The notes under the pieces were generated by a model that worked only from the letters and a program-made list of their open reading frames with translations, ran no database searches and was not told the DNA's origin. 10,212 nt of DNA. Origin: a virus. Lineage: Duplodnaviria; Heunggongvirae; Uroviricota; Caudoviricetes. Location of the stretch: IMG/VR virus record IMGVR_UViG_2778261066_000004. The stretch is one strand, 5' to 3'. The first letter of the stretch is position 1; every line of letters starts with the position of its first letter. The position numbers and the translations under genes were made by a program. Below are positions 1,608 through 4,043 of the stretch, in pieces.

Positions 1608-4043
1608 TCAGTTTTTGCCAGATTGCTGAAACGTATTTTGCCTGGTGACGGGCGTCATCCAGTGCATTGTGGCGAACGCCTTCGAATGGAATAACGGTTC
1701 TAGCATCAAAGTCGATTGTTTTTCCCAGCTCAACGATTGTGCGTACATCGCGATCGTTGTGGTAGCGCCACGGCAGGGGATTCCCTGTCGTTCGTATGAA
1801 CGGCGTAAAATTACGTTGTCGAAACTGGTTCCGTTGCCCCAGACCTGAACAAAAAACTCACCGGAGTTTTCGTCGATAAATTCCCGTAATTGCAACAGTG
1901 CATCATCTAACGGGATTTCATCAGCCAGAATGGCAGACTGCGCTTCGCGCGATTGCTTCAGCCACCACTTAACGGTGTCCCTGTCAATGACACCGCCAGC
2001 AGTATCCAGATCGATGGTCTTACTGAATTCTGGCCCAATATCTCCGGTTTGCGGATCGAAAAATATTGCACCTATTGAGATAACTGCAGCATCAGGATTT
2101 TTTCCCATGGTTTCCAGGTCGATCATCATATGAGTCCACATTCTGTTGCTGGTGGATATGTATTTATGATGACTGTTCACCGTAATTAGGGGATTTGCCG
2201 TCTCGCCAGTTTCATCACTGCTATTGCCATGCTGAGCGTCACCAGCGCTCTCCTTACGAGAATGCGCAGTGCTTTCCATTTTCTCCGAATCTTTTTCAGC
2301 CAGATTTTCTTCATCGAATGTTTCCTGATATGTTGTGTTACCCATAACAGGCCCGCAGTCCGGACATTTTCCGCCGCCAGCCCGGCCGCAAGTATTGCAG
2401 CTTTTTTCAGTCTCCTGTTGTGCTGTTGGCTCTGACTGTTGCACTTCTGGCCCGTTTTGTTGCGCATCCGGGCTGTTTTGTTCCGCTTTCTGGTCGTTCT
2501 GTTCCATTTCTTGCTGATTCTGGTACACAGAATCGCGAGTCTGGATCCCCTCAACCCACTTCGGATCATTCGGGTCGCTAATTCCTTCAACAAATTCACC
2601 ACGTGATGCAGCAAGCACTTTGTCTGCATCAGGCAGATTTTCTGTCTCCATTTTTTTATTTGTTTCGACCGTGTTAACTTTTACCGGCTCTGGTTGTTCA
2701 GAGTTTTGTGCGGCATTGGTATTTTGCGGTAAGCCTGTGTATGTGCCATTTTTTCGGGCGACGTATTCTTCTTTGGTGATTTCAGTAGCCCCGGCAGCCA
2801 GAGCCTTATTCAGACCAGACAGTTTGTTTGCGCGACCGTATTTTTCGCTGTCCTTATCGGTAAAGAGGAAGTAGAACGGTCCTTCACGCTCTACAGATGG
2901 TTCAGCTTCCAGTGCGCTTTCATTTTTTTGGGTGCCAGATACTTCTGTTTCCACTGCATCAGTTTGTGTTGCTGACGACCGGAGAACATCAGCAGGACTC
3001 TGATCCGTTTCTTCATCTTCAAACACGCCTTTTGTCGTCAGGTATTCAGTGATGTATTTGTTCAGCGCCACGGGATCTTTGTGAATGTTGAGCGGACGTT
3101 CGCGAACAAGACCAAAAATCGTCTGACGGCTGTAGCGAAGCGCATCAGGCTGTTTGCGCATTGATGCGGAGATACGCTTCCAGTCTTCTCGGTCGTTGTC
3201 GATAACTTCATTTTTTGCCCAGCGATGGATACTGCCGTCAATGTTTCCGGCATCAATATCACCAGGCCAGAGGGCGCAGGCCAGTTCGCCATCCAGTGTT
3301 TTCCATGTCTGCTTGTATTCGCGATGAATGACAGCAGTTACGGAGTCAGTTTTTCCTGCAGAGTTTTCAGTGCCTTGCCGGTTGACTCTGGCGCGGGCAA
3401 GATCGACGACGGAATTATATGCTCCACCTTCTTTGCGCTCCTTTTCCATGCGTTTTTTATGTTCGAGAAAATACGCCTGAACGTCGGGCCATTTGGCTGT
3501 TGGTTTTAAATCACGTCTGGCATCGTTGATGTACTCAGTCTGACGCTCAGGATATATGGCGTTAATTTCTTTAGTCCTGATAATTGCTTCAGTGAGGTGT
3601 CCATCAAAAGTCGTCATCTCGTCATCGCCGAGAAGCCCGCTTGCATTGATGACCATATCCACGGTGATGTTTTCATGTGTACCGAACCTGACAAGGACAG
3701 CAGCCCGCTTGTCTTCAGATAACTGATTAAAGTTAACAGTTTCTGTATCCGGTTCAGGGTCGACCGGAACAAAGGAAGCCGACTCCTCATTCCAGCGGTT
3801 TTCCTGCATATATTCGGAATCCCAGGAATCGAGAGCAGGGCGGGCCATGCCGGGTTTATCCTCGCAGACAAGAAATTTATAAGCACAGTCCTGAGCTTCC
3901 GGGTATTGTTCCAGAAATAACCAGCTAAATTTGGCTCTTGCCCGGCGTTCGTCGCCTGCTTCAATGGCAGTGGCCACAGGTTTAGCGCCTTCTGCTGTTG
4001 CCTGTTCGTCCGGAATGGCGGCGCAAATAAAGACTTTACTCAT
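1608..4043 (-). CDS. Large exonuclease-like early protein (exo/recE position); C-terminal ~200 aa with DEDD/DnaQ-like 3'-5' exonuclease motifs
   Basis: 811-aa ORF; SD-like GAGG 8 nt upstream of the ATG. C-terminal region contains MIDLETMG (Exo I D-x-E) and GNGTSFDNVIL (Exo II-like). Central Q/E-rich low-complexity stretch followed by CNTCGRAGGGKCPDCG (CxxC-N9-CxxC). Position between int/xis and the immunity region matches lambdoid recombination exonucleases. Confidence 0.85.
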   Translation of the reverse strand: MSKVFICAAIPDEQATAEGAKPVATAIEAGDERRARAKFSWLFLEQYPEAQDCAYKFLVCEDKPGMARPALDSWDSEYMQENRWNEESASFVPVDPEPDTETVNFNQLSEDKRAAVLVRFGTHENITVDMVINASGLLGDDEMTTFDGHLTEAIIRTKEINAIYPERQTEYINDARRDLKPTAKWPDVQAYFLEHKKRMEKERKEGGAYNSVVDLARARVNRQGTENSAGKTDSVTAVIHREYKQTWKTLDGELACALWPGDIDAGNIDGSIHRWAKNEVIDNDREDWKRISASMRKQPDALRYSRQTIFGLVRERPLNIHKDPVALNKYITEYLTTKGVFEDEETDQSPADVLRSSATQTDAVETEVSGTQKNESALEAEPSVEREGPFYFLFTDKDSEKYGRANKLSGLNKALAAGATEITKEEYVARKNGTYTGLPQNTNAAQNSEQPEPVKVNTVETNKKMETENLPDADKVLAASRGEFVEGISDPNDPKWVEGIQTRDSVYQNQQEMEQNDQKAEQNSPDAQQNGPEVQQSEPTAQQETEKSCNTCGRAGGGKCPDCGPVMGNTTYQETFDEENLAEKDSEKMESTAHSRKESAGDAQHGNSSDETGETANPLITVNSHHKYISTSNRMWTHMMIDLETMGKNPDAAVISIGAIFFDPQTGDIGPEFSKTIDLDTAGGVIDRDTVKWWLKQSREAQSAILADEIPLDDALLQLREFIDENSGEFFVQVWGNGTSFDNVILRRSYERQGIPCRGATTTIAMYAQSLSWEKQSTLMLEPLFHSKAFATMHWMTPVTRQNTFQQSGKN

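Follow-up and report, generated by a model that had tools for sequence, protein, structure and literature searches.

The subject of this study is a gene in the recE position of the viral DNA record IMGVR_UViG_2778261066_000004 (Caudoviricetes), whose 10,212 nucleotides were analysed as a whole and are called the window here. The gene probably belongs to the Qin/YdfE type of early-left-operon exonuclease, in which a body like that of RecE carries a DEDDh nuclease and would act independently of an annealase, and it is broken in this copy. The original prediction, made from the letters alone, had listed an open reading frame (ORF) of 811 amino acids (aa) at 1608-4043. This ORF was confirmed to be present, on the minus strand, but it is not the intact gene. 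By sequence comparison, it is a frameshifted allele of an 819-aa gene extending over 1585-4043. The same prediction had recognised the DEDD family, and it had overlooked the homology to RecE outside the nuclease, the absence of an annealase as a rule among the DEDDh relatives examined, and the frameshift of this copy. The parts of the gene are as follows.

1585..4043, minus strand: full exonuclease gene, frameshifted, 819 aa once one base is restored (repair and translation, stored range, homologue alignment)
1608..4043, minus strand: 811-aa ORF as first read, aa 759-811 out of frame (ORF list, end of the PHROG match, alignment)
1773..1774, minus strand: site of the one-base deletion, CCC to CC (comparison with the DNA of E. 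coli DCE7 and phage Tritos)
3384..4043, minus strand: module 1 of the YdfE_N type, aa 1-220, with an alpha/beta subdomain (~100 aa) and then a helical one (precomputed PF27430, phrog_5943; predicted local distance difference test (pLDDT) mostly 84-93 in the AlphaFold2 (AF2) model)
2994..3383, minus strand: module 2, aa 221-350, helical, common to RecE (roughly RecE 234-350; BLASTP, module mapping, AF2 helices 247-338, precomputed PF27432)
2679..2993, minus strand: module 3, aa 351-455, acidic and disordered at first, then a small beta-hairpin/helix unit at aa 388-432 (GPFYF...GRANK; AF2, conserved in relatives)
2169..2678, minus strand: RecE-like linker, aa 456-625 (NCBIfam RecE model on aa 452-622, BLASTP, DNA identity)
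2403-2528, minus strand: Q/E-rich segment, aa 505-546 (45% Q+E)
2355-2399, minus strand: CxxC-x7-CxxC knuckle, aa 549-563 (CNTC-GRAGGGK-CPDC)
1588..2135, minus strand: predicted DEDDh 3'-5' exonuclease domain, aa 637-819 after repair (Pfam, DexA alignment, AF2/Foldseek)
2103-2126, minus strand: motif Exo I, MIDLETMG, aa 640-647
1806-1838, minus strand: motif Exo II, GNGTSFDNVIL, aa 736-746
1633-1671, minus strand: motif Exo III, readable only in the shifted frame (HNALDDARHQAKY)

The nuclease domain

The Pfam family PF16473 (Rv2179c-like) was matched at aa 637-778 even in the truncated ORF, with an E-value of 4e-41 and 141 bits against a cut-off of 27. Both motifs on which a DEDD-like C-terminus had been proposed, MIDLETMG and GNGTSFDNVIL, were found where they had been reported and lie inside this match. 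The sole solved structures found by sequence were those of T4 DexA (8KEL and 8KEN), with E 4e-7 from the single sequence and 1e-11 from a small profile. MIDLETMG is aligned with D7 and E9 of DexA and GNGTSFDNVIL with D119, and all five catalytic residues of DexA (D7, E9, D119, H190 and D195) are aligned in the repaired frame. For the repaired domain, the AF2 model reaches pLDDT values of 78-94, and its best Foldseek match in the PDB is again DexA (8KEL, E 5.6e-10), followed by a DnaQ domain, RNase T, Orn and REXO2. Of the two original alternatives, a multidomain protein with a role outside recombination may hold as well, and the other, namely that the recE slot is filled by a different family of exonuclease, is thus borne out by the Pfam family, by the sequence relative and by the model.

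Two features had been named beforehand as speaking against that suggestion, a PD-(D/E)xK fold of the lambda-Exo or RecE type and an annealase domain in the N-terminal part, and neither was found. PF12684, which K-12 RecE carries at residues 615-850, has no match in the window protein, and YqaJ/lambda-Exo PD-(D/E)xK nucleases gave no Pfam, NCBIfam, PHROG or fold match in it. Annealase domains of the RecT, Red-beta, Erf and Rad52/Sak types were not found within the window protein, the N-terminal part included. Judged by sequence and predicted structure, the catalytic domain is of the DEDDh type and not of the PD-(D/E)xK type. DexA has been shown experimentally to be a 3'-5' DNA exonuclease (PMC12153337), and intact members of the present family would be expected to have 3'-5' exonuclease activity as well.

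The same matches raise the question of an RNA substrate. The protein would then be an Rv2179c-like 3'-5' exoribonuclease or nanoRNase that acts on transcripts or short oligonucleotides in phage development. The Pfam family is named after the exoribonuclease Rv2179c of Mycobacterium tuberculosis, RNase T, Orn and REXO2 are among the fold neighbours after DexA, and many copies of the gene are called "3'-5' exoribonuclease" by the Prokaryotic Genome Annotation Pipeline (PGAP). However, the sole solved relative found by sequence is a DNA exonuclease, and the fusion partner is the body of another DNA exonuclease, RecE. Several DEDDh enzymes, RNase T included, cut both DNA and RNA, and the fold alone is therefore indecisive. 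Taken together, an RNA-directed enzyme seems highly improbable to us.

The homology to DexA also brings in a defence function. In this explanation the protein is an HREX-type anti-phage (superinfection-exclusion) nuclease like EcD, which digests the modified DNA of T-even phages and spares host DNA. EcD, a standalone E. coli homologue of DexA, was reported to digest T4 DNA and to protect E. coli (Kang et al. 2025, PMC12153337), and another standalone homologue, Sb30 of phage ST64B (189 aa, 58% identity), is located in the same slot beside xis/int. According to the same paper, D169 of DexA is needed for the recognition of 5-hydroxymethylcytosine, W152 is also one of the recognition residues, and the absence of the tetramer residue D90 is a criterion of the defensive form (PMC12153337). 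In the present alignment, however, at an identity of 30% that leaves the equivalence of single residues uncertain, D169 falls in an insertion found only in DexA, W152 is aligned with a histidine (a tryptophan stands three positions upstream), and the equivalent of D90 is an aspartate, i.e. it is retained. Besides, the gene lies deep in the repressed pL operon and has no lysogen-expressed moron position, and the PADLOC match is weak and generic for DEDDh (E 8e-4) and was rejected as defence evidence. A defence nuclease is therefore quite unlikely, and a DNA exonuclease of the early-left operon remains the preferred reading.

The frameshift

When the DNA is compared with that of E. coli DCE7 and phage Tritos, a CCC run at 1773/1774 has lost one C; the window letters are CCCCTG-CCGTGG, against CCCCTGCCCGTGG in the two others. 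The frame shifts after Pro-Cys at aa 757-758, so that residues 759-811, the last 53 of the 811-aa ORF, are out of frame. The match to phrog_2082 tracks the protein exactly to residue 758 and ends there. Similarly, PF16473 is covered from profile position 1 to 152 of 177 by the 811-aa ORF (141 bits), whereas intact relatives cover positions 2-177 with 226-227 bits. When the base was restored in silico, the reading frame became 819 aa long and ended at 1585, and the third motif, HNALDDARHQAKY, appeared at aa 792-804. In the source database, the gene range stored for the contig PTRT01000146.1 (10,212 bp, the whole of which is the window; assembly GCA_002965745.1) is 2459 nt, that is 1585-4043, which fits a frameshifted gene of exactly this extent.

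The ORF as it stands reads ...FATMHWMTPV... where HNALDD is expected. Exo III (H-x4-D, HNALDD) is encoded at 1633-1671, only in the frame that is reached after restoration of the base. HNALDD is in frame in all intact homologues, and the closest Escherichia albertii alleles are unbroken through it. Because the deletion removes motif III, with the general-base histidine and the fourth acidic residue, the product encoded by the window should be catalytically dead. In the repaired frame, the ratio of nonsynonymous to synonymous substitution rates (dN/dS) is 0.16-0.34 across the modules and 0.16 for the nuclease domain against both comparators, with too few substitutions to judge the N-terminal module against DCE7. 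This purifying selection in the repaired frame makes the frameshift a recent event.

Programmed frameshifting was considered as well and was rejected. By inspection, the site CCC-UGC-C contains no slippery heptamer, and close relatives use a single frame.

Exact 33-35-mers of the frameshifted and of the repaired form were absent from scans of one genome per species.

A side observation concerns a near-identical allele in E. albertii, protein P0001 (690 aa, on a 512-kb contig), in which the nuclease domain breaks off after ...GPEFSK and a non-homologous tail follows. It suggests a second, independent inactivation of the same gene.

The deletion could instead be an assembly or sequencing error, in which case the gene would be intact in the organism and a normal 819-aa member of the family. 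The difference is a single base on a short (10.2 kb) draft contig, and the repaired frame is highly conserved. On the other hand, the run has only three bases and is no typical error-prone homopolymer, two contigs or samples have this 811-aa product on record, and the P0001 allele also carries a non-homologous tail, so that decay of the gene seems to recur. The neighbouring gene is also informative. The original prediction had placed a xis remnant directly after the exonuclease gene, and this is confirmed: codon 13 of xis is TAG in the window and GAG in E. coli DCE7, an independent substitution to a stop. Two independent lesions in adjoining genes point to prophage decay rather than to a sequencing error, and together the xis nonsense codon and the exonuclease frameshift suggest a decaying prophage that has lost normal excision. 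We therefore regard an error as unlikely and continue with a gene that is truly frameshifted.

The RecE-like body

Residues 218-621 of the protein were aligned by BLASTP with residues 234-592 of K-12 RecE (E 8e-52, about 400 residues). The similarity is closest from about RecE residue 447 to 592, the final ~160 residues of the alignment, which include the cysteine knuckle, and the DNA of this linker is 71% identical to nt 1346-1772 of K-12 recE. The similarity to RecE stops ~15 residues short of the start of its PF12684 nuclease. The NCBIfam RecE model (PRK09709 equivalog) matches only aa 452-622, where the score is 254.6 bits and the cut-off 1269. Residues 1-220 are unlike RecE; the database lists Pfam YdfE_N (PF27430) for them. 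At the level of sequence homology, the protein is, apart from its nuclease domain, paralogous to RecE.

The zinc-knuckle-like cluster, CNTC-GRAGGGK-CPDC, is common to RecE; its spacing is CxxC-x7-CxxC and not the nine residues given originally. The Q/E-rich segment that had been described before it was found at aa 505-546 (45% Q+E). A match of Pfam DUF2321 over the cysteine cluster (E 0.11) was discarded as noise.

The AF2 model of aa 442-819 predicts the RecE-like linker, the cysteine knuckle included, to be disordered (pLDDT < 50). Because of this disorder and because the N-terminal modules have no informative fold match, a role of the scaffold as a tether is a conjecture.

The gene is also an intragenic mosaic. 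Codons 1-220 (3384-4043) are 99% identical to DCE7 with a synonymous divergence (dS) of 0.007, and the other modules (1588-3383) are 67-89% identical with dS of 0.24-0.78. This pattern points to a recent recombination at the module boundary.

Module combinations and the presence of recT

A search with the 625 non-nuclease residues against 1.84 billion cluster representatives matched 233 clusters and no more. Mapping of modules in the long matches, confirmed with Pfam, gave all four combinations of the two N-terminal and the two nuclease modules: YdfE_N with DEDDh in P0121, RecE_N with DEDDh in P0133, P0138 and P0203, YdfE_N with PDDEXK in P0132, and RecE_N with PDDEXK in K-12 RecE, P0139 and P0217. 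By these module assignments, the relatives examined freely combine N-terminal modules of two kinds with nucleases of at least two.

The gene that follows varies with the nuclease. In four of the five PDDEXK versions examined (K-12, P0184, P0132 and P0246), recT comes next, and all six DEDDh versions (the window, DCE7, Tritos, P0133, P0138 and P0203) run directly into xis/int; this contrast of 4/5 with 0/6 comes from a small sample of non-independent lineages. The operon around P0133, with sieB, kilR and ydaE, is Rac-like in other respects. Behind the fifth PDDEXK version, P0217, comes a 271-aa protein (phrog_3657; L016:6565-7380, plus strand) that has no BLAST similarity to RecT. This protein in the recT slot could be an annealase that has escaped recognition. 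In the window, no gene of the RecT, Bet, Erf or Rad52 type was found. The earlier observation that no recT/bet-like ORF stands between the gene and xis holds, for erf-like ORFs too, in the whole early-left operon of the window. No annealase is annotated in the complete genome of phage Tritos, and a scan of nine of its hypothetical or uncharacterised proteins against PHROGs revealed none. Among the relatives examined, it is the nuclease type and not the scaffold type that goes with the presence or absence of recT. As far as gene content tells, the missing annealase is a consistent trait of the examined DEDDh versions and no window-specific deletion.

A partner in trans could still make the protein a true recombination exonuclease, with host RecA, or RecT or Bet of a co-resident prophage, as the annealase or recombinase. 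The recE position and the RecE scaffold fit this explanation. The full-length form of RecE is reported to stimulate linear-linear recombination more than its nuclease domain does by itself (review PMC11611040), and a Rad52-like annealase domain that may be borne by a third scaffold class, described below, would place the scaffold in a recombination context. In contrast, the expected 3'-5' polarity destroys the 3' tails used by RecT, Bet and RecA, no annealase was detected in the complete phage Tritos, and recT adjoins none of the six DEDDh versions. A partner in trans is therefore very unlikely, and an annealase-independent exonuclease is preferred.

Two further kinds of C-terminus were observed on the scaffold. 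Seven proteins (P0134, P0141, P0142, P0150, P0155, P0165 and P0227) form a third class on the YdfE scaffold (phrog_2489) with neither nuclease. Their C-terminal ~270 aa (phrog_7838) are conserved and contain the motif ...KKSLTDAxKKALSxLGF.... Rad52_Rad22 (PF04098) is the commonest match in this class, sub-threshold in five of the seven members with a best E of 0.0026. A PDB profile search with the C-terminal domain was negative, and hhalign against an approximate human RAD52 sequence gave E 0.023 at a probability no higher than 2%. The third class may represent a Rad52-like annealase fused to the scaffold. The other case is P0127 (L009:5001-7109, 702 aa), which has a YdfE_N/YdfE_C scaffold and a different C-terminus of ~240 aa (phrog_26058) with no Pfam or PDB match, and which stands directly before xis/int. 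Its C-terminus may be a fourth effector type.

Catalogued status of the family

The family is already catalogued, as phrog_2082, as Pfam YdfE_N, YdfE_C and Rv2179c-like, and under exonuclease labels of PGAP. The phrog_2082 "exonuclease" profile matches with 1336 bits (residues 1-758, covering profile positions 1-762 of 823), and the precomputed database domains of the window product are PF27430 (YdfE_N) and PF27432 (YdfE_C). PGAP names for the copies are "exonuclease", "3'-5' exonuclease" and often "3'-5' exoribonuclease". The frequent pipeline label "exodeoxyribonuclease VIII" is misleading on sequence grounds, because the protein has neither the nuclease of RecE nor its RecT partner and reaches 255 bits against the 1269 of the cut-off.

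With the gene and its flanks as the query, 4780 of the 5426 complete E. coli genomes were matched. The best of these E. coli DNA matches is only 89.5% identical, and the nearest proteins (96-97% identity) are labelled E. albertii. A literature search on YdfE and the Qin exonuclease, on Rv2179c and on prophage DEDDh or DexA proteins found no study of the multidomain protein. What is added here is the apparent domain-swap relation to RecE and the putative link between nuclease type and recT.

Proposed role of the intact protein

Intact members would be exonucleases that depend on Mg2+ and digest nucleic acid, most likely DNA, from its 3' ends. They would be produced from the pL operon in lytic growth, and the RecE-like body would hold the nuclease on a partner or on the substrate. 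With a polarity opposite to that of RecE, they would leave no 3' single-stranded tails for an annealase, which would explain the missing annealase partner. Their role would then be the trimming or degradation of linear DNA ends and not single-strand annealing of the RecET type.

Several points weigh against this proposal. For this multidomain family, the polarity, the substrate (DNA or RNA) and the role are each a prediction. The Pfam family and many of the copies bear the name of an exoribonuclease. The RecE-like linker is predicted to be disordered and the N-terminal modules lack an informative fold match. The co-variation with recT comes from few and related lineages, and P0217 departs from it. 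Finally, the deletion could be an assembly error.

For the window itself, the result is mostly housekeeping: it identifies a frameshifted copy of one of the commonest Escherichia prophage genes. The family-level idea is that the N-terminal two-thirds of RecE are a portable scaffold that also bears a nuclease of opposite polarity, and that the choice of nuclease predicts the annealase. This could guide work on the contribution of full-length RecE to linear-linear recombineering, and it raises the question of why many lambdoid phages manage without an annealase. As a wider and tentative possibility, which we rather doubt, the RecE/YdfE scaffold would be a general platform for interchangeable DNA-end effectors in lambdoid prophages, with DEDDh as a second, annealase-independent pathway. 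The platform would exist in three versions, namely a 5'-3' PD-(D/E)xK nuclease with RecT, a 3'-5' DexA-type nuclease without RecT, and possibly a fused Rad52-like annealase. The DEDDh pathway would then operate in most E. coli lambdoid prophages, for instance to trim ends, to degrade linear DNA or to exclude competing phages. If true, the shared scaffold would be a key to the long-unexplained role of the N-terminal 600 residues of RecE.

The operon and other genes of the window

The window has a lambdoid early-left arrangement of the Qin type. The operon on the minus strand runs in the order of HTH (helix-turn-helix) repressor, DUF1391 protein, small phrog_6937 protein, DicF, dicB, ydfD-like gene, exonuclease gene, xis remnant and integrase, and the same gene order was found in E. 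coli DCE7 and in the plaque-forming phage Tritos. The neighbouring features are listed below.

5749-6156, minus strand: HTH repressor, first in transcription order of the early-left operon
4688-4737, minus strand: DicF RNA, full-length match (43.5 bits, E 7e-8, just below the Rfam gathering score of 48)
4325-4513, minus strand: dicB, upstream in the same early-left operon, no annealase
4137-4328, minus strand: ydfD-like DUF1482 gene, upstream in the same early-left operon, no annealase
about 1267..1518, minus strand: xis pseudogene, DUF4224-type, TAG at codon 13 (1480-1482; alignment with DCE7)
279..1298, minus strand: tyrosine integrase, end of the operon (ORF and annotation)

On the plus strand, a 203-aa ORF at 4446-5057, which the source record gives as 175 aa, runs antisense to dicB and DicF. 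It matched nothing in PHROG or Pfam and is unlikely to be a genuine gene. A 343-aa ORF at 8732-9763 (plus strand) lies in a low-GC stretch (0.38-0.41) downstream of a DUF977 gene. Its Pfam match to SIR2_2 is faint, its PADLOC matches to Aga_SIR2, PDC-S21 and SIR2 are weak (E 4e-6 to 4e-4), and PHROGs gave no match. The ORF is possibly a moron of the defence type. At 9966-10132 on the plus strand, the sok antitoxin RNA (Rfam RF01794, 108 bits) indicates a hok/sok module at the contig end, where Tritos has HokD.

Comparison with known systems

T4 DexA is homologous to the nuclease domain, and the identity to the DexA of a T2-like phage is ~30% in a multiple alignment. The insertions specific to DexA, the one bearing D169 included, are missing from the window domain. 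Sb30 of ST64B resembles the domain more closely (58% identity) and shares the slot adjoining xis/int. DexA, EcD and Sb30 consist of one domain only (about 190-230 aa), whereas here ~630 residues of RecE-like scaffold precede the nuclease. Rv2179c of M. tuberculosis is the founder of the same Pfam family, PF16473, which is matched with E 4e-41 here and with 4e-67 in intact relatives. In contrast to the window protein, it is described as a single-domain exoribonuclease, and it was undetected when the PDB was searched directly with the sequence of the window domain.

RecE, the exonuclease VIII of the Rac prophage in K-12, occupies the same early-left operon slot upstream of xis/int. Its middle region is homologous, with the CxxC-x7-CxxC knuckle and an acidic, Q-rich linker, and the sizes are similar (819 aa here and 866 aa in RecE). 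The two ends differ. RecE has a PF06630 N-terminus and a PF12684 nuclease of the PD-(D/E)xK type, whereas the window gene encodes YdfE_N and the PF16473 DEDDh domain. In K-12 recE is followed by recT, and the window gene is not. The polarity of RecE is 5'-3', and 3'-5' would be expected for the window family.

The window gene belongs with YdfE of the K-12 Qin prophage. It has the same neighbours, ydfD, dicB and DicF, and nothing essential differs. The ydfE gene of K-12 is presumably a mere N-terminal remnant of such a gene. Within the YdfE/phrog_2082 family, the window copy is set apart by its frameshift.

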